Under the pieces are notes generated by a model, which was given only the letters and a program-made list of their open reading frames with translations, did no database searches and had not been told where the DNA came from. This document shows positions 1-17,308 of a DNA stretch of 32,000 nt, in pieces. Made by a program: the position numbers and the translations under genes. This DNA is from Candidatus Saccharimonadota bacterium. Its GTDB lineage: Bacteria > Patescibacteriota > Gracilibacteria > UBA1369 > 2-02-FULL-48-14. Every line of letters begins with the position of its first letter. Positions within the stretch are counted from its first letter, which is position 1. Location: contig CP064962.1 in NCBI GenBank assembly GCA_016699145.1, positions 1,050,001 to 1,082,000 of the forward strand. The letters are read 5' to 3'.

Positions 1-612
1 AAATGCGCTGTCAAAACAATTCGTACAATCCTGACTGTATTTTAAATTATAACAATTTTGACAATCCACACATTGATAAAGCAATTCAGATTGCAAAACA
101 TAGGAGCAGTCCACGCAAGATCGGGAGTGTTTAATGACATTTCCATAAAGACAATCTTCATTGAAATCAGAATCAAAAACCAAGTAGCAGTTTTTGTTAT
201 TCCCTGCATAGTTCGTGTAAACACAATTCATCTCAACAATATCACTCGCAGACACTACGTGAGGAAGAGGCACTTGCCGTAGAAGTTCATCGAATTGTTC
301 AAAAAAAGGTCGATTGAAATCGAAGTCTTTCCCATACGAAAGAGGATCCCAACGATCGCCCCACCACTCTTTTTGATCGTAGACCTTATAAGGTTTTTCA
401 GGTGAAATATTTGAAATAAGTTCACGTCCCGTCAGATCACATTTACGATGGTAAAGATTGCGTTCATTACGAAAAATCATTCGTCGTCTCATGCGTTCTT
501 CGGGGCATAAGGTGGGTAAAGGCACATCTATCTTGGCATAAAAAGCCTGATCTTCATCAGTGATGATAAAGGGTTTCGTACTAACCCGACAAATTTTTTC
601 TAATGCAGTCAT
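1..612 (-). CDS. Cys-rich paralog family protein P0, N-terminal 204 codons only (rest lies beyond the window start)
   Basis: My own minus-strand translation from ATG 612-610 stays open to base 1: MTALEKICRVSTKPFIITDEDQAFYAKIDVPLPTLCPEERMRRRMIFRNERNLYHRKCDLTGRE...FDFNRPFFEQF...CVDCQNCYNLKYSQDCTNCFDSAF. It is colinear with the N-termini of P1-P6. ATGA overlap with the P1 stop (609-611). Absent from the ORF track because it runs off the edge. Confidence 0.85.
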   Translation of the reverse strand, partial: MTALEKICRVSTKPFIITDEDQAFYAKIDVPLPTLCPEERMRRRMIFRNERNLYHRKCDLTGRELISNISPEKPYKVYDQKEWWGDRWDPLSYGKDFDFNRPFFEQFDELLRQVPLPHVVSASDIVEMNCVYTNYAGNNKNCYLVFDSDFNEDCLYGNVIKHSRSCVDCSYVLQSELLYQCVDCQNCYNLKYSQDCTNCFDSAF

Positions 613-2255
613 GAATGAAAAAGTTGAGTGTAACAATGATTGCAATAAACTTGCTCGTCCTTCTCAAAAGGCACACGAATCCCTTGCTTGCAGTGTATGC
701 AATTTCGGTCCCACAGTCGCCTTGGATTTCTCAACTTCAACCGATCCAAATAACGTTGTTGAGGGGCCCGTCTCGGCAGTGCAAGCCCCAGACTTTTATA
801 AAGGGTCAGTTCTTGAGGGATGATCTTATAAAGCTTTCCTGAAACCTCGCATTTCAAGATTTGTTTACTGAAATCTTCAGGCACATCTTGAATGGAATCA
901 GGGATAGTTATAAAAGCCCCCTGATAGTTGTCCTCAGGCTTTTCATCAATCCAATTGTATCCTCTGGCCTTTGCCTCCTCAGCAGTCAGCGGGAAGTATT
1001 CTTGTGCCAGTGTTTCATTGTAAGCGAAGGGGCTCAGCGTGGCTGGAAAAAACTCACCCCATTCACCCGTCTTTTTCATCTGATCAATGATTTGTGCTTT
1101 CAACGTTTCAAACTCCTCTTTGGAATATTCTGTATTGAGAATACAGTACTCACTTCGGTGAACTCCCACACAAGCAAAAAGATTTTTGCTGCTTTGGCAT
1201 AAATCTACATAAAGGCTGTCGCTCACATCGTAAGACACGTTTCCGAATTGAATATTCACACTTCGATTGCATCCATGACAGTTGTATTGAAGTTCACAAG
1301 CAAAGGCAGATTCATAAGTATCAAAACAGTCTTTGGCATAGCCTGTTTCATAGCAATAACGACAATCTTGCGAATAAATAACGTCGAAAGAATCAAAAAC
1401 GTTTTTAGACTGATAAATGCAATCTCCCGTACAATTTTCACTGATCAAAATAACAGATTGTTTCGGCGACTTTTGAATCATATTTTCGTACTCGTCCACG
1501 AAGTGTCGCAATTGTGCATAGGACCCCAAATTCACAGTTTTCATAAAGGCTTCATACTCTTCTTTAGTGAGTTGCTTGTTATAAACGCAGTAACTTTTTC
1601 GAATGAGGCCATTGCACATGAAAGAGTCGCTACAGTTGTAGCAGTTGTAAAGAAAAGCAGAATTAGAATTGTTGTCTGAAAGGAAATTATAGAAAGAGTG
1701 ATAGCCTCCGACCACATACTGACATTCGTAACACAGCTCACTTTTTTCAATATTGTAAGAGTCCGCGCAGTCTTTATTTTGAATCATCCATTTGGAATAA
1801 TAGACATTTTCGCAATAAGAAGAATCCACACATAAATAGCAGTTCCGATTGTTCTCTGCATGGTTGGTGTAGTCACAATTTTCACTGTTTTTTTGGACCA
1901 AAGCCAAGCGAGGAACTTTCAATTGCAGTTCTTTCAACTGTTCAAAAAAAGGACGCGAAAAATCAAAAGCTTTTCCAAATATTTTTGCATCCCATTTGTC
2001 TCCCCACCAGCATGAATTGCAATAAACGACGTAAGGCGAGTCTGCACTGTACATCGAAATGATTTGTTTCTCACAAAGGTCACATTTTCGATGATAGAGG
2101 GTGCGTTCATTTCTAAAACTGAGGCGCAATCTTTGCCTTTCATCTGGACACAAAGTCGGCAATGGCACCTGCATTTTCGCATAAAATGCTTGATCATAAT
2201 CATCGATCAAAAATGTTTTCCCACTCACTCGACATGTTTTTGTAATCGGAGTCAT
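609..2255 (-). CDS. Cys-rich paralog family protein P1 (~548 aa), function unknown
   Basis: ORF 609..2279. Start moved to the internal ATG at 2255-2253 (MTPITKTCRVSGK), which overlaps the P2 stop as TGATG. Carries the conserved family blocks: FYAKMQVPLPTLCP, RNERTLYHRKCDLC, FDFSRPFFEQ, TGEWGEFFP, and the C-terminal QELTLYKSLGL..RNPRRLW.RNCIHC. Confidence 0.85.
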   Translation of the reverse strand: MTPITKTCRVSGKTFLIDDYDQAFYAKMQVPLPTLCPDERQRLRLSFRNERTLYHRKCDLCEKQIISMYSADSPYVVYCNSCWWGDKWDAKIFGKAFDFSRPFFEQLKELQLKVPRLALVQKNSENCDYTNHAENNRNCYLCVDSSYCENVYYSKWMIQNKDCADSYNIEKSELCYECQYVVGGYHSFYNFLSDNNSNSAFLYNCYNCSDSFMCNGLIRKSYCVYNKQLTKEEYEAFMKTVNLGSYAQLRHFVDEYENMIQKSPKQSVILISENCTGDCIYQSKNVFDSFDVIYSQDCRYCYETGYAKDCFDTYESAFACELQYNCHGCNRSVNIQFGNVSYDVSDSLYVDLCQSSKNLFACVGVHRSEYCILNTEYSKEEFETLKAQIIDQMKKTGEWGEFFPATLSPFAYNETLAQEYFPLTAEEAKARGYNWIDEKPEDNYQGAFITIPDSIQDVPEDFSKQILKCEVSGKLYKIIPQELTLYKSLGLALPRRAPQQRYLDRLKLRNPRRLWDRNCIHCKQGIRVPFEKDEQVYCNHCYTQLFHS

Positions 2256-2287
2256 CAGTAGATCGTTTTTAAATAACACGCTTCACA
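2231..2287. repeat. Gene-junction repeat, copy at the P2/P1 junction (57 bp, 2 mismatches to 5586-5642)
   Basis: gacatgtttttgtaatcggagtcatcagtaga(tc)gtttttaaataacacgcttcaca compared by eye with the other two junctions. Confidence 0.8.
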
Positions 2288-3913
2288 GAATATCTTTTCA
2301 GGTTGATCCGGTACAAAACTGCTTTGCAGTTGAACTCCGCATGCGCCACAACTGCGCAGCCACAAATGGCGTGGATTACGTTTGGCCAAACGAGCTTTAT
2401 ATCGACAGTCAAAACAATTCACAGGAGCAGCCACACCCAGGTTTTTATAAAGGGCCAACTCTTGTTTGATCACTTTGTAACTCTTCTCACACGTGTAACA
2501 ACACAAAATTTGACTCAAAAGGGTCTCATCCGTGTCTTCAATGCGTGCAGGAGGACTCAATTTTGGTCCCGAATAACTATAATTTTTCTCCTCATCCTTC
2601 CACTTCAAACCGAGAGCCAGCACCTGTTCCCGTACGAGAGGAAAGTATTCCTGTGCCACCGTTTCATTGTAAGCAAAGTAGGCGAGAGATGGAGGGAAAA
2701 ACTCGCCCCATTCACCGGTCTTTTGCATATGCTCAATGATGCGCGGAACCAGAGCTTCATACTCCTCTTTAGTGTATTGCTTGTTCAGAATGCAGTAGCG
2801 CTGTTTGTTCAGTCCAATGCATCCAAAAAGATCCTGAGAATTGTTCACGCAGTAGTGGCAGTAACGCAGGTTGCTCACATCGTTCCAGCATGAATCGGAA
2901 AAAGCGACATTGTAAAAATTATTCCCGCACAAGTGGTTTTCGTAGCCAAGCTCACCCGTGATGCCCCATGCATAACAATCCTGACAGTCACGGCTGTTGT
3001 GGAGCCAGGTGCAGTAGCGACAGTCTTCCAGATGGGTACAGTCATAGGAGTCATAAACATTCTTTGAAAACGCGATATGGTCTCCAGTGAAAGATTCATT
3101 CTGTACACCTGCATAATACTTTTGTGGACATTCCATTTTGAGTGCTTCAAAAGAGTTTTTGGCTTCCAAAAAACGTTCAGGATTTTCGCGAATTTCTTGA
3201 ACTCGTTGCTCATAATCCTCTTTGCTCAATTGTTCGTTGAAAAGACAGTATTCTTTGTTCACGAGCGACACACACCCAAAACAATTTTTACAAGATCGAC
3301 AGTTGTACATGAGAGTCGAATCGCTGCAGCTCTGACAGTTTTGCGAATAGGTCAATCGGTAGCAGGAATAACAGTCGATGCATTCATAACACAGCTCGCT
3401 GTCAAAGATGAAAAAGCAATCCAGCAAATTGCGAGAACGGTGCAAGTAAGTGCAGTAGTAGCAGTCTTCATTGTCGTTACCGGCAAAAACAAGGTAACAA
3501 CTTTTATTACGAGAAGTAAGGTTGGTGAAATCACAATTCTCATTGTCTTTTTGCAGGTTCAAAGCCAAGACCGGCACTTGCTTTTTGAGTTCACCAAACT
3601 GCTCAAAGAAAGGACGAGAAAAATTAAAATCGCGTCCATAGTTCAAGGCATTCCATTTGTCGCTGTAAAAGCAAGGCGGACAATAAACTTGAATCGATTC
3701 ATCTTCATAAATAGACAAAATTTCCTTCTGACAAAGGTCACACTTCCGATGATAGAGTTTTCGCTCATTGCGCCACATGAGACGCCTTCGCATGCGCTCT
3801 TCTGGACACAAAGTCGGCAATGGCACCTGCATTTTTGCATAAAACGCTTGATCATAATCATCAATCAAGAACTCTTTCCCACTCACCCGACATATTTTTG
3901 TAATCGGAGTCAT
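2255..3913 (-). CDS. Cys-rich paralog family protein P2 (552 aa), function unknown
   Basis: ORF 2255..3937. Start taken at ATG 3913-3911 (MTPITKICRVSGK), overlapping the P3 stop as TGATG. I count 43 Cys. No signal peptide or TM segment. Confidence 0.85.
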   Translation of the reverse strand: MTPITKICRVSGKEFLIDDYDQAFYAKMQVPLPTLCPEERMRRRLMWRNERKLYHRKCDLCQKEILSIYEDESIQVYCPPCFYSDKWNALNYGRDFNFSRPFFEQFGELKKQVPVLALNLQKDNENCDFTNLTSRNKSCYLVFAGNDNEDCYYCTYLHRSRNLLDCFFIFDSELCYECIDCYSCYRLTYSQNCQSCSDSTLMYNCRSCKNCFGCVSLVNKEYCLFNEQLSKEDYEQRVQEIRENPERFLEAKNSFEALKMECPQKYYAGVQNESFTGDHIAFSKNVYDSYDCTHLEDCRYCTWLHNSRDCQDCYAWGITGELGYENHLCGNNFYNVAFSDSCWNDVSNLRYCHYCVNNSQDLFGCIGLNKQRYCILNKQYTKEEYEALVPRIIEHMQKTGEWGEFFPPSLAYFAYNETVAQEYFPLVREQVLALGLKWKDEEKNYSYSGPKLSPPARIEDTDETLLSQILCCYTCEKSYKVIKQELALYKNLGVAAPVNCFDCRYKARLAKRNPRHLWLRSCGACGVQLQSSFVPDQPEKIFCEACYLKTIY

Positions 3914-3987
3914 CAGTAGACGGTTTTTAAATAACACGCTTCACACAGCACTTTTTCAGGACGGTTTGGAGCGTAGGTGCTTTGAAT
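3895..3987. repeat. Gene-junction repeat, copy at the P3/P2 junction (93 bp, identical to 5592-5684)
   Basis: tttttgtaatcggagtcatcagtagacggtttttaaataacacgcttcacacagcactttttcaggacggtttggagcgtaggtgctttgaat is present base for base at both places. Confidence 0.9.
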
Positions 3988-5610
3988 CGCAGAAGAACAT
4001 TCTGCACAAGACCGAGGCCACAAGTAACGAGGATTTCGAAGGGCACCACGGTTCAACAGTCTTTGTTCGGGACATATTAAAGGAACCGGCAAATTCATTT
4101 TTCGATAAAAAGCCAACTCTTGCGGGATCACTTTATAAAGTTTTCCGGTCTTGCTACAGCGAAGGATTTGCTTTGTTAGCCCATCCTCTACATCTAGAAT
4201 ACTTTCTGGGATTTTAAGCGCTGGGCCTATGTATTCTTCTTTAGCTTCGTCTTTCTCATACCAGTTCCAACCTTTGGCGAGTACTTGGTCTTTGCTGAGA
4301 GGGATGAGCAAGTGAGCGCTCGTTTCGTTATAAGCATAAGGAGAAATAGAGGAAGGGAAGAACTCGCCCCATTCACCCGTTTTTTGCATGTGCTCGATGA
4401 TGCGGGCCACCATGACGTCGTATTCTTCTTTAGTGTACTGCTTGTTCAAAATACAATATTGGCTTCGGCGCAGACCAAAACAGCCAAAGCAGTCCTTCAC
4501 GGAAGGATAACAGTCATCGCAGTAAATCAAATTAGACACGCCTTGCCAGCAATGATCGCTGAACAGCAAGTTGTAAGCATTCGCCCCACAGGCGTTGCAT
4601 TCATACAAGAGTTCAGCATTGACCCCCCACATGGAATAATCGTAGCAGTACTTCGCTCCATTCAAAATTTCATAGCAATACGCACAACCCTCCAAGTTTT
4701 TGGAGTCATAACAAAAACGAGAATCCTTGCACTGTACCAAGTTGTCTCCAGAAACATCTTCGCATTGAGTGATGTAAGTGGCACGATGAGGCATTGAGAG
4801 CCGAACTGCTTCACTTTGGGCACGGATTTCTTCAATGGATTTATTTGTAAGTTTTAAAGATTTCATTCGCAGCTCCCATTCTTCTTTGCTGAGCGGTTGA
4901 TTGAAGTAGTAATACTGTTTTTGAACGAGTCCATGGCATCCAAAACAATTCTTGCAGTTCTTAAGGTCGGATGAAAAATAACAATCCACACTATTCTCAC
5001 AGTTTTGGCAGAACATACATCCATAGCATGCGAAAAGGCTTACGCCTTCATAGCAGAGCTCGCACTGCTGAATGCGCAGACAATCCACACAATCCTTACA
5101 AGTATTTGCACCTCGTGTGTAGTAAACATCTTCATTATTTTCGGCTTGAGAGAGGAGGTAGCAATTCTTTGAATGATCGGCACAGTTTGTGTAGTCGGAA
5201 TTGACGTCCAGCTGAGGATCCACAAAGAGATTGTGATGAGGCACTGCATCGCAGAGCTCCTTGAACTGCTCAAAAAAAGTACGCTTGAAATCGAAGTCTC
5301 TACCATAGTCTCTAGGATCCCATTTGTCCGAGAGCCATTCTGTGATGTGGTAAACAGGGTAAGGAGATTCGGACTTATGCATAGAGACCATGGATTTTCC
5401 AGTCATAGCACATTTAGCGTGATAGAGGGTTCGTTCGTTTCTAAAGCTTAAACGACGTTGCCAACGACACGTTGGACAAAATTTTGGCGTGGGTATTTGG
5501 AATTTTTTCCCAGCAAAATTAGGACTCATTCGCTCGTAGAAAGCTAGATCTTCTTCATAAACCGTGAAACCAAACTGACAATTTAGACATGTTTTTGTAA
5601 TCGGAGTCAT
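3913..5610 (-). CDS. Cys-rich paralog family protein P3 (~565 aa), function unknown
   Basis: ORF 3913..5634. Start taken at ATG 5610-5608 (MTPITKTCLNCQFG), overlapping the P4 stop as TGATG. The last ~25 codons are identical at the DNA level to those of P4. Confidence 0.85.
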   Translation of the reverse strand: MTPITKTCLNCQFGFTVYEEDLAFYERMSPNFAGKKFQIPTPKFCPTCRWQRRLSFRNERTLYHAKCAMTGKSMVSMHKSESPYPVYHITEWLSDKWDPRDYGRDFDFKRTFFEQFKELCDAVPHHNLFVDPQLDVNSDYTNCADHSKNCYLLSQAENNEDVYYTRGANTCKDCVDCLRIQQCELCYEGVSLFACYGCMFCQNCENSVDCYFSSDLKNCKNCFGCHGLVQKQYYYFNQPLSKEEWELRMKSLKLTNKSIEEIRAQSEAVRLSMPHRATYITQCEDVSGDNLVQCKDSRFCYDSKNLEGCAYCYEILNGAKYCYDYSMWGVNAELLYECNACGANAYNLLFSDHCWQGVSNLIYCDDCYPSVKDCFGCFGLRRSQYCILNKQYTKEEYDVMVARIIEHMQKTGEWGEFFPSSISPYAYNETSAHLLIPLSKDQVLAKGWNWYEKDEAKEEYIGPALKIPESILDVEDGLTKQILRCSKTGKLYKVIPQELAFYRKMNLPVPLICPEQRLLNRGALRNPRYLWPRSCAECSSAIQSTYAPNRPEKVLCEACYLKTVY

Positions 5611-5684
5611 CAGTAGACGGTTTTTAAATAACACGCTTCACACAGCACTTTTTCAGGACGGTTTGGAGCGTAGGTGCTTTGAAT
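5592..5684. repeat. Gene-junction repeat, copy at the P4/P3 junction (93 bp, identical to 3895-3987)
   Basis: Same string as 3895-3987. It spans the first 6-7 codons of the downstream gene, the TGATG overlap and the last ~25 codons of the upstream gene. Confidence 0.9.
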
Positions 5685-7271
5685 AGAAGTTTGACATGCA
5701 TCACAATGGCGAGGCCAAAGTTTGCGAGGATTGCGTTGGGACATCCGTTGCACGTGGCGCTCTTCCGGACAAAGCAAAGGCACTGGGAGCTGCATTTGGC
5801 GATAAAAAGCCAATTCTTGAGGGATGACGCGGTACAGCTTGTCGGTTTTTTTGCAACGCAAAATTTGCTTTAAAATAGCATCATTCACGTCAGAAATCTT
5901 AGCTGGAACCTGCACATCGGGGCCTTTATAATTACTCGACTCGTCATCTTCCTTCCAAGAGTAGCCCATGGATTGAGCCTCTTGCGGGCTGAGAGGGTAA
6001 TAAATGGAAGCCACCGTCTCGTTGTAAGCAAATGCACTCATTGTGCTAGGGAAGAACTCGCCCCATTCACCCGTTTTTTGCATGTGCTCGATGATGCGCG
6101 GAACCAGAACTTCGTACTCTTCTTTGCTGTACTGCTTATTCAAAATGCAGTACGTATTTTTCTTCAGCCCTACACACCCAAATAAATTGGATGAGAACAT
6201 ACAATTATCACAGTACATAAGCTCATCCACTCCCCAACAGGTGTTTGAAAAAAGAACTTTTCGAGCACGATCACCGACGGTAATGGAATCATAAATCAGC
6301 TCAGCTTTAAAGCCCCACACATCATAGTCGTAGCAATCTGTAGCTCCATTGCTGAGGTTGCTGCAAAAATGACAATCACGAACGTCCTGACAATCGAAGG
6401 CAAAAGAACAGTCCTTGGTATTTTTTAAGTAATCCCCTGTGCTGTTTTCATTATTCATATTGTGATCCGCCTTGAATGAAAAATTTAAAAACCATTGTCG
6501 CACTTCTGCCTTTAGTTTTTCCCTGTTCCCGTGCGTATCCAAGTTAAAAGCTGCTATGGTTGCCTCATACGCTTCTTTACTCAGGGGTTTATTAAAAAAA
6601 TAATATTCTTTATTTCGTAATCCCACGCTGCCAAAACAATGGTTACAATTTCTACAATCTCTCAAAAAAGCGCTATCTGTACAATTCTGGCAATCTTGCG
6701 AATTAAACAGTTGATAACATTTTTCACAGTCCACGCATTCGTAACACAGTTCACATTCATAAATTCGAAGACAATCCATTGAACTTTTTGAATACTTACT
6801 GAGATGACTATAATAAACACTTTCTGAGCAATCCGAATCAAAGACTAAATAAGAATCCTTCATGTAGGAAGTTTGATTCACATAATCCGAATTCGTACTA
6901 GAAGCATCATTACAAAGACTGGGATGAGGCGTTGCATAAAGCAGCTCTTTGAACTGCTCAAAAAAGGGACGGTTAAAGTCAAAAGAACGACCTGAGTCAA
7001 GGCCACTCCACCGATCTCCCCACCAGCAAGGATTGCAATAAACTTTGTAAGGAGAACCGGGCCGATACATCGTGATGATTTGTTTTCCACAAAGTTCACA
7101 CTTCCCATGATAGAGGGAACGCTCATTCCTCCAGAGCATACGTCTGCGCTGACGATCTTCTGGACAAAGGGTCGGTAAGGGCACTTCCATCTTCGTATAA
7201 AAAGCCTGATCCACTTCCTCAATGGAAAAGCTATTTTTACACTCCCTACAAGCCTGATCGATAGTTGCCAT
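5610..7271 (-). CDS. Cys-rich paralog family protein P4 (~553 aa), first gene of the head-to-tail array
   Basis: ORF 5610..7286 begins with GTG. The first ATG is at 7271-7269 (MATIDQACRECKNSF). Same block structure as P1-P3. Confidence 0.85.
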   Translation of the reverse strand: MATIDQACRECKNSFSIEEVDQAFYTKMEVPLPTLCPEDRQRRRMLWRNERSLYHGKCELCGKQIITMYRPGSPYKVYCNPCWWGDRWSGLDSGRSFDFNRPFFEQFKELLYATPHPSLCNDASSTNSDYVNQTSYMKDSYLVFDSDCSESVYYSHLSKYSKSSMDCLRIYECELCYECVDCEKCYQLFNSQDCQNCTDSAFLRDCRNCNHCFGSVGLRNKEYYFFNKPLSKEAYEATIAAFNLDTHGNREKLKAEVRQWFLNFSFKADHNMNNENSTGDYLKNTKDCSFAFDCQDVRDCHFCSNLSNGATDCYDYDVWGFKAELIYDSITVGDRARKVLFSNTCWGVDELMYCDNCMFSSNLFGCVGLKKNTYCILNKQYSKEEYEVLVPRIIEHMQKTGEWGEFFPSTMSAFAYNETVASIYYPLSPQEAQSMGYSWKEDDESSNYKGPDVQVPAKISDVNDAILKQILRCKKTDKLYRVIPQELAFYRQMQLPVPLLCPEERHVQRMSQRNPRKLWPRHCDACQTSIQSTYAPNRPEKVLCEACYLKTVY

Positions 7272-7358
7272 AAAATAATCTATCACTTATGGCAAGTATA
7301 GCGGAAAATGTAAAAATATACCTAATAAAAGCTTGAAAAAAGTCATACAGCAGATTAG

Positions 7359-7374
7359 AATTTCTGTAGAAATT
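7359..7374. promoter_or_regulatory. Perfect 7-2-7 palindrome AATTTCT-gt-AGAAATT in the P4/trmB-like divergent intergenic region (candidate operator)
   Basis: Read directly; ends 24 nt upstream of the TrmB-like ATG (7398). Confidence 0.3.
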
Positions 7375-7397
7375 ATTTTACAACATCAACAAAATCC

Positions 7398-8156
7398 ATG
7401 CTCCAGGAGAAACTCACCGAATTCGGCCTCTCAGAAGAAGAGGCGCAAGTCTACCTCACGGTACTTGAACTCGGAGGTTCTTTTGCCAGCACCATCGCGA
7501 GCAAGGCTAAAATTCCACGCGTAAATTGTTATTACGTTCTTGAAAGTCTGCGCAAACGGGGACTCATCACCACCAACCTCAAGGGGAGCGTGAAATTTTT
7601 CGTAGCGGAGCCACCTCAAGTGCTCGTGAACCAAATGGAATCCCAATACGAAAGCGCAAAAAAACTGCTCCCTGAACTGCTCACACTGACCAACGCGCAA
7701 GCCTTCAAACCCATCATTCGCTCCTACGAAGGCCTCGAAGGCATCAAAACCATCTTTGAACAATCTCTCGAAGCCAAGTCAGAAGTGCTCGGTTACACCA
7801 ATCTCGAAGCCCTCGGAAGACTCTTGCCGGACTACCTCCCTGGCTTCTTTCAAAAACTCGTCAAAAAACGCATCAAAACCCGCCTGCTCTCTCCATCCAC
7901 CGAAGAAGCTCGTCAATTCATCGAGCGCTTTTACCCTAAAAAATACCCTGAAGAACTTGTGGAAGTGCTTTTTGTGAACCCCAAGGAATTCAAATTTGAA
8001 AACCAGATTTCCATTTATGACAACGTCGTGGCCATCACCTCCATGAACCCCGAAGAACTCATTGGCGTGGTGATCGAATCCGCTGTTTACGCCCGCACCC
8101 AACGCGCAGTTTTCAATCTTTCTTGGCTCGGAGCCACGGCTTTTGTGGCTCAGTAA
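7398..8156 (+). CDS. TrmB-family transcriptional regulator (N-terminal winged helix-turn-helix)
   Basis: The N-terminus MLQEKLTEFGLSEEEAQVYLTVLELGGSFASTIASKAKIPRVNCYYVLESLRKRGLI has the typical TrmB wHTH pattern. 252 aa. ATG start. Confidence 0.75.
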   Translation: MLQEKLTEFGLSEEEAQVYLTVLELGGSFASTIASKAKIPRVNCYYVLESLRKRGLITTNLKGSVKFFVAEPPQVLVNQMESQYESAKKLLPELLTLTNAQAFKPIIRSYEGLEGIKTIFEQSLEAKSEVLGYTNLEALGRLLPDYLPGFFQKLVKKRIKTRLLSPSTEEARQFIERFYPKKYPEELVEVLFVNPKEFKFENQISIYDNVVAITSMNPEELIGVVIESAVYARTQRAVFNLSWLGATAFVAQ

Positions 8157-8218
8157 ACTTGTTTTAAATAGCAGTTCAAACAATAAATGATCTTCTCTTC
8201 GCTTTGATCTGTCCAAGC
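8150..8218 (-). pseudogene. Displaced 3' end (22 codons plus stop) of paralog P5, separated from the gene body by IS insertion
   Basis: Minus-strand translation is AWTDQSEEKIIYCLNCYLKQVY*, the family C-terminal motif (E..(I/V)YC..CYLK.VY). It joins in frame to ...CRKCGQS at 10446 once the IS and one TSD copy are removed. Confidence 0.8.
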
Positions 8219-8329
8219 CTAAAAAGACCCCAGTTTTAAGAGAGTGAATTGGAGATTTTGTTTTAGGGTAAGGCTAAAATGGGTGTTAAATTTTGAAGAA
8301 CCACCTTTAAAAAATAACAGATTTTAGCC

Positions 8330-8960
8330 ATGAACAAATATATCCAAGATTTCATTACAAATAAATGCCGAAGTATATTTACAGGTTTAACCCTGCCACA
8401 GAAGAAGGCCTTGGCTGAAGTACTTAGAGGACTTTTCGTAGAAGCCACCCCTATACTTCGGCATTTAGCCCAAAACAAAGAGGTTTCAGCAAAGAAGCAA
8501 GGGAACAAGTACTCTCATCATCTTGGGAATGTTGATTTACAGAAGAAAGTGGAGGATTTCTCAGTAAGAGCTGTAGCTTCTGAAATTCGTAAAAACACAG
8601 TGATTGCTTATGATCTCGTAGATCTTTCCAAACCTTCCGCAAAGAAGATGGAGAAATTGTCACAAGTATATGATTCGAGTGAAGGGAGCATTGAACCTGG
8701 TTTTCTTTTGCATGGAGTGGGCGTGAACAATCTGCTCCTAAAACTGCGTTTTCATCACAATGATAAAGAGTTCTTGGGACAGGTTAGGAAGGCTATTTTG
8801 GAGGAACTCACCCAGGTTTTTGATCATAAAGGCATTTTTGTCTTTGATCGTGGCAACGACGATGAGAAACTTTTTAGAGATCTTCGTCAGGTCTTAAAAG
8901 TGCAATTTATCGCAAGAGTAAGGGAAAACAGAACGGTTGTGCTTAAGGAAACTGGGGTCT
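8330..8960 (+). pseudogene. IS4-like DDE transposase, N-terminal fragment (interrupted)
   Basis: ORF 8330..8995. Candidate catalytic Asp contexts at VIAYDLVDLSK and IFVFDRGNDD. The reading frame is broken at 8960 by the nested IS. Confidence 0.75.
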
Positions 8961-9896
8961 GTTTTGTAATCAATAGCTTTGCATCACTTCGTTAGGAGTT
9001 AGCATGTGAAGACCCATGTGAGGACGTTCAAAATTGTAATAGTGAAGGAAGTCAGGGATTGCTTTTTTTGTAAGCCTCTAAAGTCTTTGGGACTCGGGAG
9101 AGGCATTCCTCCTGGATGGTTCTGTTGAATCTCTCCACATAGGCATTGTCTGTGGGTGTTCGTACTCTTGAATGCCTGTGCTGAATTTCATTAGCTACAA
9201 GCGTTTTAGTGAGCCACTTGGAAAACTCACTTCCATGGTCTGTCTGGATCATTTTAAGTTCAAAGGGCATGTCTTCTTGTGAGTGCTGAATAAACTCCCA
9301 ACTTGCGTGGGTTCCAATCTTCATCACCGGCATAGCAGAGGCCCATCTGCTGCACACGTCCAGCATAGTGTATACATAAAGTCTGTCATAATAAGGCCCA
9401 TCCACAATCGTGTCTATTTGCACCAATATGCCTGGTTTTTCAGGCCGCGGTCTTTCCTCATACTGGTGCCACTTCTTCCACTTGCTGTATTTGGTCATCT
9501 CGTTCCTTTTGAGTGTTCTCTTCACACTGGAAAGACTCACTTCGTAGCCATCTCTTTCCAGAAAATAGTGAATCACTTCTGCACACCGCTGGTACTTGAG
9601 TCTGTACTCTATGACTTTCTGCACTGTCTCTGCAGAAAGCTCACTGGGGTGCGAATGGGGACGTGAGCTTTCTGTGGGAATGGTGTGGCCATAGTTATTG
9701 CCTCTGAGCTTTTCCACCCACCGCACAATGCTGCTTTGGTTAAAACCTGTGTGTCTGGCCACTTCGCGTGTGCTCCAGCCTTTTTCCAGAACTAACTTTG
9801 CTGCCTCCATTCGCACCCGAGGCAGATGGGGATTTTGTGTGTATGCCATGTCCATATCTTTGCACAGGGGTGATGCAAAGCTATTGAACCATTACA
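8961..9896 (-). mobile_element. IS481-like insertion sequence nested inside the IS4-like transposase gene (~936 bp)
   Basis: Imperfect 27-bp terminal inverted repeats with an 18-bp perfect core: caatagctttgcatcac at 8971-8987 and gtgatgcaaagctattg at 9870-9886; outer end TGTAAT/ATTACA. 6-bp duplication GGGTCT at 8955-8960 and 9897-9902. Ends are uncertain by a few bp. Confidence 0.8.
9052..9855 (-). CDS. IS481-family transposase (HTH plus rve/DDE integrase core)
   Basis: 267 aa. N-terminal HTH (GWSTREVARHTGFNQSSIVRW). DDE contexts LVQIDT, MIQTDHGSEF, DNAYVERFNRTIQEE. Confidence 0.8.
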   Translation of the reverse strand: MDMAYTQNPHLPRVRMEAAKLVLEKGWSTREVARHTGFNQSSIVRWVEKLRGNNYGHTIPTESSRPHSHPSELSAETVQKVIEYRLKYQRCAEVIHYFLERDGYEVSLSSVKRTLKRNEMTKYSKWKKWHQYEERPRPEKPGILVQIDTIVDGPYYDRLYVYTMLDVCSRWASAMPVMKIGTHASWEFIQHSQEDMPFELKMIQTDHGSEFSKWLTKTLVANEIQHRHSRVRTPTDNAYVERFNRTIQEECLSRVPKTLEAYKKSNP

Positions 9897-9901
9897 GGGT
9901 C

Positions 9902-10438
9902 TTGATTTCTGTGAAAGAGTTGCCTGAAGGAAGCTACGAAGTGTTTTTGATGAAAAATGGAAAAGTGCTTGGGGATCTTTGCCACAATCTGCTCATACGG
10001 AACCATCTGGAAGGGAAAGAACCCATAAGGCTCATCTACTCACTCAAGGATTCATATACTGCAGAGCAGATTGTGAATTTGTATCTGGAAAGATGGGGAA
10101 TTGAAAAGAGTTTTAAGAGAGTGAAGCAAAAGTTCCAGTTGGAGAAAATCCGTGTGCTTAGCCTGAAAAAGTTTATCAATTTGATTGCTCTGACTCAATT
10201 TGCAATGAACCTCTCTGTTCTTATGTTTAGGAAAGTCCAAGCTCTCACTCACAGTCTGGTTACTTCTGTTGTTTCCAACTACAAGGGGTTCATTGCAAAG
10301 AAATCACTCACCTTTAACCTGGAATCTTTCATAACTTTTCTCCAGAATTCTCTACAGTCACTCCAATTTCATGCCCCTCCAAAACGCCAACCCTCCCTCT
10401 TCTCATTCAGGCAACTGAAAAAACTGGGGTCTTTTTAG
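9902..10438 (+). pseudogene. IS4-like DDE transposase, C-terminal fragment
   Basis: The 3' part of ORF 9698..10438 contains the Y-2-R-3-E-6-K signature of IS4-type transposases (YLERWGIEKSFKRVK). Deleting 8961-9902 fuses it in frame to 8330-8960 (KETGV|LISVKELPEG), giving ~388 aa. Confidence 0.75.
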
Positions 10439-11996
10439 TCCAAGCGGATTGACCACATTTGCGACAGGTCGTCTGGTGGAGTGCATAAGGGTTCCGTCGA
10501 GCTAGACGTTTTTCGTGACGCACATCTGGATGCAGGCTCGGGCGGGGCAAACCCATTTGTGCGTAAAACTTGAGCTCTTGTGGAACCAGTCTAAATGTGC
10601 GACCAGACTCGCGGCACTTCACCATATTCTCACCCTCCGCCTCTAGCGGAGCCACTTCTTCCATGTCGTGCCAGTGATACCCTTGGGCAAGCGCTTGTTC
10701 TTTAGTGAGAGGCTGAAGGAGCATCGCGCAACTTTCGTTGTAGCCTACATTTGATAAAGCGGCAGGGAAAAATTCACCCCACTCGCCCGTCTTTCTCATG
10801 TGCTCTACAATCCGTGGCACCAAGGCTTCATACTCTTCTTTGGTGTATTGCTTATTCAAAATACAGTAAGCATTTTTCTTCATGCCGATGCAGCCGAACA
10901 AATTCTGATTTCCGTTGTAAACGACCATCGAATAATAGACATCGCTGTTGCCACCGATCACCGCATAAGAAAAATAGACCCCGTTATTCATCCCATGGGA
11001 CAGCACCTCGTAACCCACTTCCGCCTTGGTGGCAAAGTCCACATCCATAAGATCTTTGGAGCCTTCAGCTTGAGTGACATTACGCAAGTCTTCCCCATCC
11101 ACAATATCGAAGGAATAATGAATGTTGCGACTGCCAAAGACGTAACTTCCCACCACATTTTCCGAATTAAAAATATTCAGTGCCCGCACAGGAGATTTTT
11201 TTTGATGCTCCTCAAAAGCATGACGTGCACGTTCATACGACTCCGCAGTTCCATCCAAATACTCCGCGATTCTTTTTTGATATTCTTCCTTATTCAGTGG
11301 CTGGTTGAAGAAATAATATTGTTTTTGAGCGAGTCCCACACATCCAAAACAATCACTGCATCCACTCATGTCCGCACAAAAATAAAGATCATGGCAGCCC
11401 TTAGAGCGCTCGGTAGCCATACAGTGATAGCAAGCTTGGCAGTCAATGCATTCGTAACAAAGCTCACAAGAATTGATGTCATAACAATCCATCGAAGAAC
11501 GCGACTGAATAGCCATGTAGCTATAATAAATATCCTCGGAATTCATGAGACGAGAAGACAAAAAGCTGTTCCGACTTTGTAAAGTGAAGGCCGTGTAATC
11601 GCAGTTTTCAGAGTTCACCACCGAAGAAGCAGGCCGGGGTACCACTTTTGAGAGCTCAGCAAATTGTTCAAAAAAGGGACGACTGAAATCGAACTCTCGC
11701 CCATAAGCCAGTGGATCGTAGGCATCGCTCCACCACACATCGATGGCATAGATGGGGTACTCCTTGTCGGGCGAATTAATAGAAATAATATCTCGTCCGG
11801 TCTTGCTGCACTTACGCTTGTAGAGGTGTCTATCGTTTCGGAAAGAATAACGGCGTTGTCGGCGGCACGGGGCACAGAGTCGAGGCTCCGGAATATCCAG
11901 TCGCTGGCCCGCCAGCGAGGGTGTGATTTTCTTAAGGAATTCCTCATCTTGAGGCGTCCATTCAAAGTTCAACTCGCAATGAATACAATTTTTCAT
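10407..11996 (-). CDS. Cys-rich paralog family protein P5, 3'-truncated by the IS insertion (reads into the IS end)
   Basis: ORF 10407..12017, with the likely ATG at 11996 (MKNCIHCELNF). Family blocks are present. The C-terminus ...CRKCGQSAWTKKTPVFSVA* departs from the family consensus exactly at the IS boundary. The second half of the core has lost most of its cysteines. Confidence 0.8.
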   Translation of the reverse strand: MKNCIHCELNFEWTPQDEEFLKKITPSLAGQRLDIPEPRLCAPCRRQRRYSFRNDRHLYKRKCSKTGRDIISINSPDKEYPIYAIDVWWSDAYDPLAYGREFDFSRPFFEQFAELSKVVPRPASSVVNSENCDYTAFTLQSRNSFLSSRLMNSEDIYYSYMAIQSRSSMDCYDINSCELCYECIDCQACYHCMATERSKGCHDLYFCADMSGCSDCFGCVGLAQKQYYFFNQPLNKEEYQKRIAEYLDGTAESYERARHAFEEHQKKSPVRALNIFNSENVVGSYVFGSRNIHYSFDIVDGEDLRNVTQAEGSKDLMDVDFATKAEVGYEVLSHGMNNGVYFSYAVIGGNSDVYYSMVVYNGNQNLFGCIGMKKNAYCILNKQYTKEEYEALVPRIVEHMRKTGEWGEFFPAALSNVGYNESCAMLLQPLTKEQALAQGYHWHDMEEVAPLEAEGENMVKCRESGRTFRLVPQELKFYAQMGLPRPSLHPDVRHEKRLARRNPYALHQTTCRKCGQSAWTKKTPVFSVA

Positions 11997-12222
11997 TATA
12001 TTCAGCCTAGCAAACATTTCAGGGATTTGTCAGGAGCTTTTCGGTACAATCTGAAATGCTTAACCTTTACACATGAAAACAAGATGTTCACGTTGGACCA
12101 CGCGAAAGGAAGCCAAAGATAAAAATGGCTACCGTCATCCCCAAGTCAAAAGGCAAGAGTTAAAAATGAATCAAGAAGAGCAGGAGGTTTACTTGAAGGG
12201 TAATTTTCAGTATCTTAAATCC

Positions 12223-12483
12223 ATGCAAAGTTCTATCCTCAATTATTTAGTTTTCTTCAAAGAAGAACCCGAAGGAGGTTTTACAGTTCTTGTGCCAAGT
12301 TTGCAAGGATGCGTTAGCTACGGAGAGAATCTGGAAGAAGCCAAAAGAATGGCTGAGGAAGCTATATTGCTTTACATAGAAGATTTGATTGAATCTGGAG
12401 AAGAGGTGCCTTCCGATGAAAAAGCTTTTTCCTTGTCCATAAAAATCACCAAACCAGCCAAGAGAAAAGAACAATATGCCTAA
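12223..12483 (+). CDS. hicB: HicB-family antitoxin (UPF0150-type)
   Basis: YLVFFKEEPEGGFTVLVPSLQGCVSYGENLEEAKRMAEEAILLYIEDL matches the HicB N-terminal domain pattern. Overlaps hicA by 8 nt. The start is uncertain (ATG at 12223, 12166 or 12073). Confidence 0.7.
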   Translation: MQSSILNYLVFFKEEPEGGFTVLVPSLQGCVSYGENLEEAKRMAEEAILLYIEDLIESGEEVPSDEKAFSLSIKITKPAKRKEQYA

Positions 12484-12688
12484 ATTGCCCACTTTTAATT
12501 CCAAGGAACTCATTGGCTTCCTTGAAAAGATAGGTTTTGTAATTCGACGAACTTCAGGAAGTCACGTCATTTTGTTTAACGAAAAAAAGAAACGTCGTGC
12601 AGTTGTTCCATTCCATAAGAAAGAATTGCCTCGAGGAACGCTCCATTCTATTTTGAAAGAGGCAGGAGTTTCAAAAAAAGATCTTTAG
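12476..12688 (+). CDS. hicA: HicA-family mRNA interferase toxin (YcfA-like)
   Basis: 70 aa: MPKLPTFNSKELIGFLEKIGFVIRRTSGSHVILFNEKKKRRAVVPFHKKELPRGTLHSILKEAGV. This shows the characteristic HicA length and the G-S-H and P-H-...-L-...-G-T motifs. Confidence 0.8.
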   Translation: MPKLPTFNSKELIGFLEKIGFVIRRTSGSHVILFNEKKKRRAVVPFHKKELPRGTLHSILKEAGVSKKDL

Positions 12689-12703
12689 AGGCCATCTCAA
12701 AAA

Positions 12704-14353
12704 TCAGTACACCACTCCCAAATAACACTCCTCGCAGTACACGATTTCAGGTTGTTCTGGGGCATAAGAAGTATGAATGGATTTTCCGCAGCGGACACAA
12801 TTTCGCTCCCACGTTTGGATAGGGTTTCGAAGCGCGATGCGCATTTCGTTGCGCGTCTCAGGTGCATAGTGAGGAATAGGAACGCCCATCTTGCGATAGA
12901 AAGCCAATTCTTGAAGGATGATGCGATACGGTCGCCCCGTTTTTTCACAAACTAAAGCAGAATCTAAAATGGAATCGGTGACTGCACTCAAAGCATCTGG
13001 GATGAAAGGGGCATTCGCAAGGTCATGTTTTTCTTCATTCAACCACTGATAGCCCTGAGCCAAAGCCTCTTCCTTTGTGAGAGGATAGTAGTCCTGAGCG
13101 ACCGTTTCATTGTAAGCAAATTTAGAATTTTGAATTGGGAAAAATTCACCCCACTCACCAGTCTTTTTCATGTGCTCGACGATGCGAGGCACCAGAGTTT
13201 CATACTCTTCTTTGCTGTACTGCTTGTTGAGGATGCAATACTGCGCTCGCTTCATATTGCAGCAGCCAAAAAGGTTTGAAGAATGCACCACCATGTCGCA
13301 ATAATAAGTGTCTTGAGAGGACCAAGAGAAAGTGCAGAAGGCACAGCGACTGCCTTCAATAGATCCGACCATTTCGTAATAAAGTTCAGCCTTGTAACCC
13401 GCATGATCGCAACTCAAAACATCATGGATGCCCCAGCCGCCAAAAAAGATGTCTTTGCAATCCTCAGCAGGCCCATCAATCCCAAAACAATTCTGACAAT
13501 TTTTAGCATTCGTCACAAAGTCTCCCGTGCAGTTTTCAGCATTGACCATACGCGCGTAGCGATGCGGAAATTGTAGGCGAAATTTTTCAAATTCACTTTT
13601 GAGATATTGCACACTTTTCCACGAAAGCAAATCGTACTGACTCACGATGCGTTGGTATTCTTCGGGGGAGTAAGGCTTATTGAAAATATGATGCTTTTTG
13701 TTGATGAGACCCACGCATCCAAAACAATCTTCACAATTGCGACATTCATATAAAAAAGCGCTGTTACGACAACTCACGGAACCTCGTGAGTAGCGCAGGG
13801 AGTAAGAGCTGTGACAATCCACGCAGTCGTACATCAGCTCACAACTGGTGCACCAATAGCAGTCCACATTGTCCACTCCCTTCATGGAGAAAACACTGTA
13901 AAGAGAATCTTGGGAGTAATCTCCGCCGAAGACCAAGTAACAGTTTTTATTGCCTGTAGTCACATTGCAAAACTCACTATTTTCACCGTTCACATTGATA
14001 AGTCCAATGTGTGGAACGGCCAATTGCAGTTCGCGAAATTGCTCAAAAAAAGGACGGTTGAAATCAAAATCGCGACCATAACTTTTAGAGTCCCATTGAT
14101 CGCTCCACCATGCTTCTTGTGAGTAAACTTTAAAAGGCTTGTCCGGCGAATACACAGAGACCATCGGTTTTCCGGTGAGCGCACAAATGTCTTTATAAAT
14201 CTTCCGCTCATTACGATATGAAAGGCGTCGTCGATGTCGCTCTTCAATACTCAAAGTTGGGGTAGGGATCGCATAAAGAAATTTATTGAGCAGAGCCAGT
14301 TCCCAATCACTGACATCGAAAGATTTTCCGGTGATTTTGCAGATTCTTTGCAT
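12704..14353 (-). CDS. Cys-rich paralog family protein P6 (549 aa), function unknown
   Basis: ORF 12704..14353 with an ATG start (MQRICKITGKSF). Colinear with P1-P5. Starts 4 nt after the stop of the upstream flavoprotein gene. Confidence 0.85.
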   Translation of the reverse strand: MQRICKITGKSFDVSDWELALLNKFLYAIPTPTLSIEERHRRRLSYRNERKIYKDICALTGKPMVSVYSPDKPFKVYSQEAWWSDQWDSKSYGRDFDFNRPFFEQFRELQLAVPHIGLINVNGENSEFCNVTTGNKNCYLVFGGDYSQDSLYSVFSMKGVDNVDCYWCTSCELMYDCVDCHSSYSLRYSRGSVSCRNSAFLYECRNCEDCFGCVGLINKKHHIFNKPYSPEEYQRIVSQYDLLSWKSVQYLKSEFEKFRLQFPHRYARMVNAENCTGDFVTNAKNCQNCFGIDGPAEDCKDIFFGGWGIHDVLSCDHAGYKAELYYEMVGSIEGSRCAFCTFSWSSQDTYYCDMVVHSSNLFGCCNMKRAQYCILNKQYSKEEYETLVPRIVEHMKKTGEWGEFFPIQNSKFAYNETVAQDYYPLTKEEALAQGYQWLNEEKHDLANAPFIPDALSAVTDSILDSALVCEKTGRPYRIILQELAFYRKMGVPIPHYAPETRNEMRIALRNPIQTWERNCVRCGKSIHTSYAPEQPEIVYCEECYLGVVY

Positions 14354-14357
14354 AAAT

Positions 14358-15644: not shown

Positions 15645-15650
15645 GGGCGC

Positions 15651-15679
15651 AGTCTAAAGCTCAAAAAGGACTCACGCAA
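15651..15679 (-). promoter_or_regulatory. Candidate promoter TTGCGT-17-TAGACT, 6 nt before the flavoprotein ATG (leaderless-type)
   Basis: Reverse complement of 15651-15679, read by eye. No Shine-Dalgarno sequence. Confidence 0.35.
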
Positions 15680-15708
15680 GGCGGTTGCTTTCAGGTTAGA
15701 AATCCCGG

Positions 15709-15714
15709 TATAAT
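15709..15714 (+). promoter_or_regulatory. TATAAT -10 box, 10 nt before the nucleotidyltransferase ATG (leaderless-type)
   Basis: ggTATAATacccacatatATG. The only -35-like hexamer (TTGCTT, 15684-15689) has a long 19-nt spacer. Confidence 0.35.
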
Positions 15715-15724
15715 ACCCACATAT

Positions 15725-17011: not shown

Positions 17012-17017
17012 AAGCCT

Positions 17018-17308
17018 CTAATACGCCTGCTCAAAAGTAACATCGCCATTGATTTGACATTGGCAGCCCAGACGAGTGTTCATATCGCTGACCTCCACAC
17101 CGCGCGCTTCCAAGGTGAATTCTTCCTGATCCGTCTTAGGCCCAATGTTTTCAGCGCCGCTTTTGATTTGGATGAGACAAGTGGAACAAATCCCGCTTTC
17201 GCAACCAAAGGCCACATCCAAGTTTTGAGCTTGAGCGACTTCACGAAAATTGGAGCCAGCTTGGCACTGTGCGGTAGCACCGGTCGTAGAATTGGTAATG
17301 GTTGGCAT
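17018..17308 (-). CDS. 2Fe-2S ferredoxin
   Basis: 96 aa. Ligand pattern C-x4-C-x2-C...C (GCESGICSTC ... LGCQC). Confidence 0.7.
   Translation of the reverse strand: MPTITNSTTGATAQCQAGSNFREVAQAQNLDVAFGCESGICSTCLIQIKSGAENIGPKTDQEEFTLEARGVEVSDMNTRLGCQCQINGDVTFEQAY

Follow-up and report, generated by a model that had tools for sequence, protein, structure and literature searches.

A cysteine-rich protein family of Patescibacteria with predicted treble-clef end modules, a duplicated solenoid-like core and a partial genomic link to VirD4/TrwB-like ATPases

A stretch of 32,000 nucleotides on contig CP064962.1 of assembly GCA_016699145.1 (positions 1,050,001 to 1,082,000; Candidatus Saccharimonadota bacterium, placed in the Gracilibacteria by GTDB), here called the window, encodes seven paralogs of one cysteine-rich protein family, all on the minus strand. 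How is such a protein built, and what might a genome do with seven of them? We approached these questions through the gene P2, an open reading frame (ORF) of 552 amino acids (aa) at 2255-3913 on the minus strand, with its ATG at 3913-3911 and its stop codon at 2257-2255. The P2 protein matches 'hypothetical protein IPG41_05880 [Candidatus Peregrinibacteria bacterium]' (P0001), encoded on a 1.34-Mb contig, at 100% identity. Sequence searches of Pfam, NCBIfam, PADLOC and the PDB gave no family assignment for P2, and PADLOC had no match to the P2 family as a whole. P2 is predicted to be soluble, with neither a signal peptide nor a membrane segment; a hydropathy scan of the Kyte-Doolittle type found no hydrophobic window of 19 residues in any paralog. 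An initial annotation had described homologous, zinc-ribbon-like modules at the two ends of the protein, flanking a tandemly duplicated core of cysteine repeats that tolerates the loss of ligands. The analysis below upholds both internal homologies, and it suggests a different reading of the metal sites at the ends and of the cysteines in the core.

The N- and C-terminal modules are homologous to each other. Smith-Waterman alignment of the first with the last 100 aa gave z=8.2-25.2 in all six complete paralogs; z-scores were computed against 500 composition-preserving shuffles, none of which reached the score (0/500). The corresponding hhalign comparison, built on a 46-sequence alignment (A2), gave a probability of 99.8 and E=1.8e-28 over 76 columns. 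The central core is a tandem duplication: half-core 1 against half-core 2 gave z=9.7-18.2 in the shuffle test, and a probability of 99.8 and E=4e-30 over 135 columns in hhalign. Control pairs (N-module with core 1, C-module with core 2, N-module with mid region, linker with mid region) gave E=0.12-0.35. The N- and C-modules of 24 proteins could be co-aligned with minor indels only: three N-modules carry an insertion of 9 residues, one gap spans a single residue, and the ends are offset by one residue. Many of the matched columns hold residues other than cysteine (FY, P-x-P, R-x3-R, RN-R-L(Y/W), FGC-GL, NKQY-KEEYE), and the self-similarity is therefore not an artefact of composition.

The nature of the end modules, A and A', was read from an alignment of 203 full-length homologs from 78 genomic loci and the window. 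Each module contains four Cys pairs making two sites, N_A and N_B in module A and C_A and C_B in module A' (Table 1), and an Arg-rich helix lies between N_A and N_B. The presence and absence of partner cysteines within these sites are correlated with phi coefficients of 1.0, 0.99, 0.95 and 0.92. For N_B, the states CCCC, Cxxx and xxxx were found in 60, 98 and 27 of the homologs, and intermediates are almost absent. End-module cysteines are thus kept or lost as whole tetrads and therefore behave as real metal sites, and the co-variation shows that knuckle 1 pairs with knuckle 2 and knuckle 3 with knuckle 4. From this pattern we predict structural zinc sites, of which the outermost, N_A and C_B, are nearly always kept and the inner two come and go as complete tetrads. 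P2 keeps N_B (C58, C61, C78, C81), C_A and C_B, and its N_A is degenerate (C8, S11, C36, E39). Two smaller points of the initial annotation also hold: a first knuckle degenerated to C-x2-(S/T)-G-K is common in the family alignment, and both end modules are basic, with a median net charge of +3 (N) and +6 (C).

The full-length AlphaFold model has a predicted local distance difference test score (pLDDT) of 84 and a predicted template modelling score (pTM) of 0.85, with the end modules at a pLDDT of ~90. All AlphaFold models were read as DSSP assignments and pLDDT/pTM values rather than by inspection of coordinates. In module A, DSSP places hairpins at residues 4-17 and 54-67 and helices at 37-45 and 79-82; in module A', hairpins are found at 470-479 and 518-531 and helices start at 501 and 544. 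The first Cys pair of each site lies on a beta-hairpin and the second at the N-terminus of a helix (helix starts 37, 79, 501 and 544), which is the arrangement of a treble clef. Each end module of ~80 aa is thus modelled as a pair of Zn(Cys)4 sites of treble-clef type, with an Arg-rich helix as the connection between them. Of the zinc-ribbon-like ends proposed earlier, the zinc-type character stands and the single zinc ribbon does not.

Site C_B has the spacing C522-x2-C525-x17-C543-x2-C546. The same pattern of C-x2-C-x17-C-x2-C, with a hairpin knuckle and a helix start, is shared by site B of each end module and the treble-clef mini fingers (zf_Tbcl PF13451, zf_Tbcl_2 PF23477, TIGR04272). On P2 residues 521-549, zf_Tbcl_2 (PF23477) scored 19.0 bits, below its 27-bit cut-off, and TIGR04272 scored 16.1 bits, below its 36-bit cut-off. 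Sub-threshold matches to zf_Tbcl_2 were found in 39 of the 46 members (E<=1) and to zf_Tbcl in 13 of 46, the best with E=1.3e-7. The mini fingers are short, stand-alone domains of unknown function, whereas the P2 family has an 80-aa module with two sites that occurs twice in a 550-aa protein. Two consecutive Zn sites are also found in LIM (CRP1, PDB 1B8T, 1CTL) and GATA-type fingers, and the last P2 finger aligns to the second LIM finger with E=0.0016-0.003. The LIM consensus is C-x2-C-x16-23-H-x2-C-x2-C-x2-C-x16-21-C-x2-(C/H/D), with a 2-residue spacer and a His/Cys pattern, whereas the P2 sites lie ~18 residues apart (39 to 58) across a helix. Identity as a LIM domain was rejected; Pfam LIM matched 4 of the 46 members at E>=0.011, and the LIM matches in the PDB cover the last finger alone. 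Small viral zinc-ribbon proteins superpose on 43 and 47 residues and a match labelled alanyl-tRNA synthetase on 41, at 0.5-2.3 Å. A weak Pfam match to Med15_N/KIX occurs in 16 of the 46 members (best E=6.7e-5).

The core consists of two Cys-ladder half-cores, B and B'. In half-core 1, the Cys-rich columns (Cys frequency >=0.25) all fall in one modulo-3 register. The autocorrelation of Cys is 0.67 at lag 3 and 0.60 at lag 12, that of Cys plus Ser reaches 0.71 at lag 12, and the autocorrelation of the profile peaks at lags 12 and 24, highest at 12. Half-core 2 is the unit of half-core 1 with indels and has a period of ~13 (3/13). Within the 12-mer, positions 3, 6, 9 and 12 are occupied to 68-84% by C/S/T/A/G/V, and charged residues are almost nil at 3, 6 and 12. 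Position 2 is a conserved aromatic residue, and variability is greatest at the polar positions 4, 5, 7 and 8 (0.9-1.5 bits). Both half-cores close with a conserved cap, FGC-GL-K-YC-LN-Q-SKEEYE, followed by a helix. The cap motifs are present as quoted in the initial annotation, and the cap stretch YCILNKQYSK has the highest conservation in the family (3.64 bits). The cores are acidic, with median net charges of -6 and -5.

An AlphaFold model of the core alone (residues 100-400, 125 sequences) has a pLDDT of 79.8, with the ladder at 78-88 and strands that start every 12 residues. When this model was searched against the PDB with Foldseek, the top 50 matches were all beta-solenoids (pectate-lyase-like helices, tailspikes and pentapeptide-repeat proteins), none of them significant. 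We conclude from the models that each half-core is a predicted narrow, beta-solenoid-like domain with coils of ~12 residues, in which every third residue would be small and point inward.

In contrast to the end modules, the ladder cysteines are lost one by one, with weak co-variation (phi <=0.45), and they are replaced by S, V, L, T or A, and also by I; in two of the strongest ladder pairs, the partners are separated by a spacing of 12 residues. Lost singly and replaced by small residues, they look like packing residues and not like obligate ligands. Single losses would be tolerated because the ladder cysteines mainly fill the interior of the coil. The initial annotation had pointed to the paralogs P5, which is depleted of cysteines in its second half-core (2, compared with 10-14 in the other paralogs), and P1, which has lost some in its first (11, compared with 12-16). 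These counts are borne out, as is a solenoid-like fold that tolerates the loss of cysteines. To speak of 'ligand loss' in the core is probably mistaken, since the cysteines are lost singly, like packing residues.

A 12-residue repeat with a small residue at every third position is also found in TmAFP of Tenebrio molitor (PDB 1EZG), a right-handed beta-helix with 12-residue coils. The TmAFP coil is the narrowest known type of beta-solenoid. The autocorrelations of C/S/A at lags 3/6/9/12 nearly coincide, with 0.64/0.62/0.59/0.59 in TmAFP compared with 0.69/0.58/0.60/0.71 in the half-core. Homology to TmAFP was rejected (hhalign probability 1.5-1.6%, E=0.03; no Pfam AFP match at E<=1), and Foldseek searches of the PDB did not return 1EZG. 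The two also differ in that the T-C-T ice-binding face is absent from the P2 family and in that its coils hold up to 4 Cys, compared with 2 in TmAFP. A disulfide ladder is unlikely in the P2 family because the proteins lack a signal peptide and are predicted to be cytoplasmic; the N-terminus opens with a Zn-type knuckle at residue 8. Among other beta-solenoids, the pectate-lyase-like, pentapeptide-repeat and hexapeptide beta-helix classes are represented in the matches of the P2 model; LpxA is at rank 1 and gamma-carbonic anhydrase at rank 5 of the full-length Foldseek search. These differ in having coils of 18-22+ residues and other sequence motifs, and none of the matches is significant (E>=0.087). 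Identity as a pentapeptide- or hexapeptide-repeat protein was rejected based on the periods of 3/12 (core 1) and 3/13 (core 2), with no match to Pfam Pentapeptide or Hexapep.

The remaining parts of the protein, linker L and mid region M, are highly conserved: linker L holds one of the best conserved runs of 10 residues in the family (2.99 bits), and mid region M reaches 2.9 bits at GEWGEFFP and SPFAYNET. No homolog of mid region M was found inside the protein or outside it (Pfam, hhalign). Each repeated B unit comprises the ladder and its cap, with a helix (F..L...P) in front of the ladder and another helix after the cap. The palindrome in A-L-B-B'-M-A' concerns the order of the domains alone. 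Since linker L and mid region M are unrelated (E=0.35), the protein as a duplicated A-L-B unit was rejected; two separate duplications are needed, and not one tandem A-B duplication. We regard the anatomy of P2 described here, with the borders given in Table 1, as very probable.

Table 1. Coordinates of the P2 family genes, of the P2 domains and predicted metal sites and of the neighbouring regulator gene (window positions unless stated otherwise; residue numbers are those of P2)
Feature	Position	Strand	Description
P0	1-612	minus	5' part only, cut at the window edge
P1	609-2255	minus	Putative Zn sites N_B and C_B intact
P2	2255-3913	minus	552 aa, domain order A-L-B-B'-M-A'
P3	3913-5610	minus	Putative Zn sites N_A and C_B intact
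P4	5610-7271	minus	First gene of the P4-P0 run
P5	10407-11996	minus	2 Cys in half-core B'; C-terminus truncated, last knuckle gone
P6	12704-14353	minus	C_B is the sole intact putative Zn site
N-terminal module A	3629-3913	minus	Residues 1-95; from hhalign against the C-module, site patterns and DSSP
Linker L	3548-3628	minus	Residues 96-122; FNFSRPFFEQF in P2 (family FDFxRPFFEQF); pLDDT 97-98
Half-core B	3209-3547	minus	Residues 123-235; ~eight 12-residue Cys-ladder coils (predicted), then cap CFGCVSLVNKEYCLFNEQLSKEDYE
Variable helical connector	3110-3208	minus	Residues 236-268; helices 231-261; lowest conservation, 1.26 bits
Half-core B'	2756-3109	minus	Residues 269-386; second, less regular Cys-ladder solenoid (predicted), then cap LFGCIGLNKQRYCILNKQYTKEEYE
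Mid region M	2531-2755	minus	Residues 387-461; helix, TGEWGEFFP, FAYNET, variable acidic linker; pLDDT 91-98
C-terminal module A'	2258-2530	minus	Residues 462-552; basic; C_A and C_B intact in P2
Putative site N_A	P2 residues 8, 11, 36, 39		All four Cys in 172/203 homologs
Putative site N_B	P2 residues 58, 61, 78, 81		All four Cys in 60/203 homologs
Putative site C_A	P2 residues 472, 475, 500, 503		All four Cys in 82/203 homologs
Putative site C_B	P2 residues 522, 525, 543, 546		All four Cys in 195/203 homologs
TrmB-like helix-turn-helix regulator	7398-8156	plus	Pfam TrmB E=8.7e-16; divergent from P4, 126-bp spacer

The genes P4-P3-P2-P1-P0 form a run of five co-oriented genes with stop/start overlaps of the type TGATG or ATGA. 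P2 is the third of these; its ATG begins on the last base of the P3 stop codon (TGATG). P5 and P6 are located upstream of the main run, with insertion sequence (IS) fragments, a hicBA pair and the divergent TrmB-like regulator gene in between. The proteins of the array contain 4.5-7.8% Cys. Pairwise, the paralogs are 38-50% identical to P1 (alignment A1, protein), the best match of each within the window has 40-52% protein identity, and at the DNA level identity is 60-80% in blocks. At 38-50% protein and 60-80% DNA identity, the duplications must be old. P0, P3, P5 and P6 have orthologs elsewhere that are 57-72% identical, compared with 40-52% to their siblings in the window, indicating that the copies are old and retained and do not stem from a recent burst.

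A profile search of 1.84 billion representatives gave at least 5,934 clusters (defined at 50% identity) at E<=1e-3 and 2,481 at E<=1e-30. The best 150 matches are mostly 530-600 aa long (range 527-808), and nearly all match end-to-end. In the candidate phyla radiation (CPR), members were found in Peribacteria, Peregrinibacteria, Gracilibacteria, Abawacabacteria, Staskawiczbacteria, Nomurabacteria, Paceibacteria and others. The family is also present in Bdellovibrionota/Oligoflexia, including one member on a 3.26-Mb contig. Tandem arrays are usual, with up to 12 copies in 22 kb. Phage and plasmid collections gave zero homologs and 2.9 million viral contigs gave one fragment, indicating that this is not a mobile-element or phage family. 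An occurrence in Micrarchaeota (L041) was rejected as a probable misbinning; the contig also encodes an SLH-domain protein, a HisKA histidine kinase and an RluA-type pseudouridine synthase, and with such bacterial-type genes it is probably bacterial and misbinned into an archaeal metagenome-assembled genome.

Literature searches on the family, its motifs and the related Pfam accessions found no paper. The cysteine-rich proteins reported from Peribacteria (PMC4736985) were considered and rejected as members of the same family, being ~1,655 aa long and exported. Two unusual members should be mentioned. P0196 (731 aa) is a rare fusion with an N-terminal GNAT acetyltransferase domain, and P0231 (808 aa) has a C-terminal extension of ~250 aa that appears winged-helix-turn-helix-like by eye and has no Pfam match. 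These fusions are single cases and could be gene-calling artefacts.

Two kinds of genes recur next to the arrays. Homologs of the TrmB-like regulator were found in 34 of 79 loci (78 fetched loci and the window), usually divergent and upstream, and the gene is directly upstream of 19 of the 62 arrays for which the upstream side is visible. Of the 52 arrays with a visible downstream side, 10 are directly followed on the same strand by a gene encoding a VirD4/TrwB-like ATPase; among arrays of three or more copies, about half are. In a reverse check starting from metagenomic ATPase loci, a gene of the P2 family was found within 10 kb in 16/52 and directly upstream in 7/52, and nearly all of the closest relatives of the array-linked ATPase have a family gene nearby. 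The last array gene of locus L009, which precedes an ATPase gene, has 72% identity to P0. Based on synteny with L009, L016 and L063, we predict a gene for an ATPase of ~747 aa without a membrane segment just beyond the left edge of the window, at most ~1 kb downstream of P0.

The ATPase at L063:11861-14104 matches PF10412 (TrwB_AAD_bind) with 35.6 bits (cut-off 20.5), PF02534 (T4SS-DNA_transf) with 31.3 (20.1) and PF12696 (TraG-D_C) with 25.1 (22). It is thus this neighbour, and not P2, that resembles the type IV coupling proteins (VirD4/TrwB/TraD); it shares their nucleotide-binding domain but is without the N-terminal membrane anchor. In eight of the ten ATPases examined (747-815-aa and 485-487-aa forms), no 19-residue window had a mean Kyte-Doolittle value >=1.6. 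The ATPases of L007 and L056 do have a hydrophobic segment, and neither directly adjoins an array. No virB4, relaxase or other type IV secretion system (T4SS) gene was recurrent within +-10 kb of the arrays. Having no membrane anchor and no T4SS genes nearby, the array-linked ATPases fail two defining features of coupling proteins; they match the defence-system model mad8 about as well (E=1.3e-11). A third conserved component downstream of the ATPase was searched for and not found.

In several of the array-linked ATPases (L063:11861-14104, L009:12376-14619, L003:12055-14298 and others), the N-terminal ~320 aa form a conserved, soluble domain that has no membrane segment and matches nothing in Pfam. 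Short forms of ~485 aa (L069, L060) are without this domain.

What would proteins of this build do? We tentatively suggest that they are rigid binding scaffolds, a reading that we hold to be less likely right than wrong. The conserved parts, i.e. the basic end modules, linker L, the caps and mid region M, would make a contact common to all paralogs, the partner being either a protein that they share or a polyanion, for example nucleic acid; binding of nucleic acid by the basic ends, put forward in the initial annotation, may be part of this. The variable, polar, outward positions of the coils would serve paralog-specific recognition, and old paralogs could be retained side by side because the variable coil faces would give each its own specificity. 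The array would be under divergent TrmB-like control in many lineages, and its products probably act with the soluble, hexameric-type VirD4/TrwB-like ATPase encoded directly downstream. A zinc-capped double solenoid that would work as a scaffold is the best explanation we can offer, and with anatomy and function taken together we give it an even chance of being right.

Several observations weigh against this explanation. In the full-length AlphaFold model, the pLDDT of the ladder is 55-74, and the Foldseek matches to beta-solenoids are non-significant (best E=0.087, TM ~0.1). The solenoid reading draws on DSSP assignments and confidence values, which carry no information on handedness, on the geometry of the coils, on distances between cysteines or on how the end modules pack against the cores. 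The cap cysteines C205, C208, C211 and C214 are 81-97% conserved and could form a further metal or iron-sulfur (Fe-S) site. The links to the ATPase and to the TrmB-like regulator are found in a minority of arrays (19% and 31%, respectively), single-copy family genes are found in unrelated contexts, and the context of the Bdellovibrionota locus L049 is uninformative.

The most serious competitor is that the arrays encode cargo or effectors of type IV secretion, where the VirD4-like ATPase would read the Arg-rich C-terminal module as a signal and the protein would be delivered into a host cell. The ATPase gene is directly downstream of arrays far above chance and its product passes the Pfam cut-offs of TrwB_AAD_bind, T4SS-DNA_transf and TraG-D_C, the C-module is always present and basic (+6) with a nearly invariant last Zn site, and the family is found in CPR and Bdellovibrionota, bacteria whose way of life is attachment to other cells. 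In 2,918 genomes of Patescibacteria, a 2025 survey counted 5,713 VirD4-like genes, only 148 of them near virB4; its authors suggest that these genes may have been exapted, and the role of the thousands away from virB4 is acknowledged there as an open question (PMC12102498). The same source reports that a t4cp homolog of Patescibacteria is non-essential for epibiotic growth, which counts against the cargo explanation (PMC12102498). Further against it, canonical coupling proteins have a membrane segment, which is missing from the array-linked ATPases (485-815 aa, eight of the ten examined); T4SS genes such as virB4 do not recur near arrays, and 81% of the arrays with a visible downstream side are without the ATPase gene. 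In addition, a channel that requires its cargo unfolded is poorly suited to tightly coiled proteins clamped by zinc. We consider secretion cargo improbable.

A metal store, a redox buffer or an Fe-S carrier, with thiolates lining the coil and binding a column of metal ions or clusters, would be in keeping with the C-x2-C-x2-C-x2-C runs, the high Cys content of all paralogs and the conserved cap tetrad C205/208/211/214. The behaviour of the ladder cysteines speaks against it: they vary independently and are substituted by V, L, I and A as well as by S and T, the spacing in half-core B' of P5 is intact with 2 Cys left, and the tetrad co-variation typical of ligands is seen in the end-module sites, in contrast to the ladder. 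No Fe-S or metallothionein family was matched in Pfam or NCBIfam. We consider this explanation to have a small chance.

Slightly weaker still is the idea that the acidic solenoids mimic DNA, in the manner of Qnr, MfpA and AlbG, and inhibit or protect a DNA-processing enzyme, with the basic ends helping to dock. The core net charge of -5 to -6 would allow this, and AlbG, a pentapeptide-repeat protein of Clostridium botulinum, EfsQnr and QnrB1 are among the top Foldseek matches, none of them significant. The period is however 3/12 and not 5/20, the charge density is modest, and no topoisomerase or restriction gene was found as a recurrent neighbour; DNA mimicry is unlikely. Finally, that the self-similarity arises from a Cys-rich, low-complexity composition is next to impossible: many CxxC motifs and a high Cys content can inflate alignment scores, but composition-preserving shuffles fall short (z=8-25) and control pairs of the same Cys-rich protein gave E>0.1.

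Returning to the scaffold, its wider setting can be stated as a speculation that we believe is more probably wrong than right. The P2 family might supply the partner that the many orphan VirD4-like ATPases of Patescibacteria lack and form, with the TrmB-like regulator, a CPR-wide cytosolic system that has so far gone unrecognised, and the 12-residue Cys-ladder coil might be a new fold class in bacteria, without a solved relative. If so, a soluble ATPase of hexameric type would act on or with zinc-clamped double solenoids, for the handling of nucleic acid or for the hand-over of proteins to a host. The building blocks, treble-clef fingers and a beta-solenoid, are of known kinds. No description of the family, of the order A-L-B-B'-M-A', of a cytoplasmic 12-residue Cys-ladder coil or of the link to an anchor-less ATPase was found in the databases and literature searched. 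If confirmed, the Cys-ladder coil would give the insect antifreeze beta-helix a counterpart in the cytoplasm and could be a compact scaffold for protein design. Much of bacterial diversity is accounted for by CPR/Patescibacteria, and the majority of the proteins specific to their lineages have yet to be explained. For the P2 family, the clear domain borders and the predicted number of Zn atoms per chain, 3 for P2, 2 for P3 and 1 for P6 from the site patterns, are sufficient for the design of constructs, and the recurrent linkage to an anchor-less VirD4-like ATPase is a concrete and testable lead.

Some further observations concern the surroundings of the array. P5 diverges from its siblings after CRKCGQS at the C-terminus, and on the 3' side it adjoins or runs into a DDE transposase ORF (9698-10438, +); an rve-type IS ORF (9052-9855) and an IS4-like fragment (8330-8995) adjoin the same side. 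P5 looks truncated by an IS insertion. Between P5 and P6, hicB (12073-12483, +) and a hicA-like gene (12476-12688, +) encode a toxin-antitoxin pair, the hicA call being a reading of the sequence alone; HicA-like genes are located near arrays in 8 other loci. A gene for a flavin adenine dinucleotide (FAD) protein of the geranylgeranyl-reductase family (14358-15644, minus strand) ends 5 nt ahead of the start of P6 on the same strand, and is not a recurrent neighbour among the other array loci fetched. The GC content is 0.39-0.46 in the array (1-14400) compared with 0.49-0.52 in a block of housekeeping genes (15000-22000) encoding 2-oxoacid:ferredoxin oxidoreductase, formyltransferase and serine dehydratase.

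Two features elsewhere in the window may be mentioned. An ORF of 612 aa at 28448-30286 (+) lies in a region of strong AT-skew (0.18-0.22) and has no match in Pfam, NCBIfam or PADLOC. An ORF-free gap of 1.2 kb at 22661-23820, between the genes for the serine dehydratase beta-chain and enolase, holds two tandem copies of a unit ~580 nt apart, with blocks that are 76-98% identical and each copy ending in the terminator-like AAAGCCGGTTTTTTATTGC. No tRNA was found in this gap and no Rfam family reached its gathering score; judged by its sequence, the repeat may be a duplicated non-coding RNA of an undescribed type.

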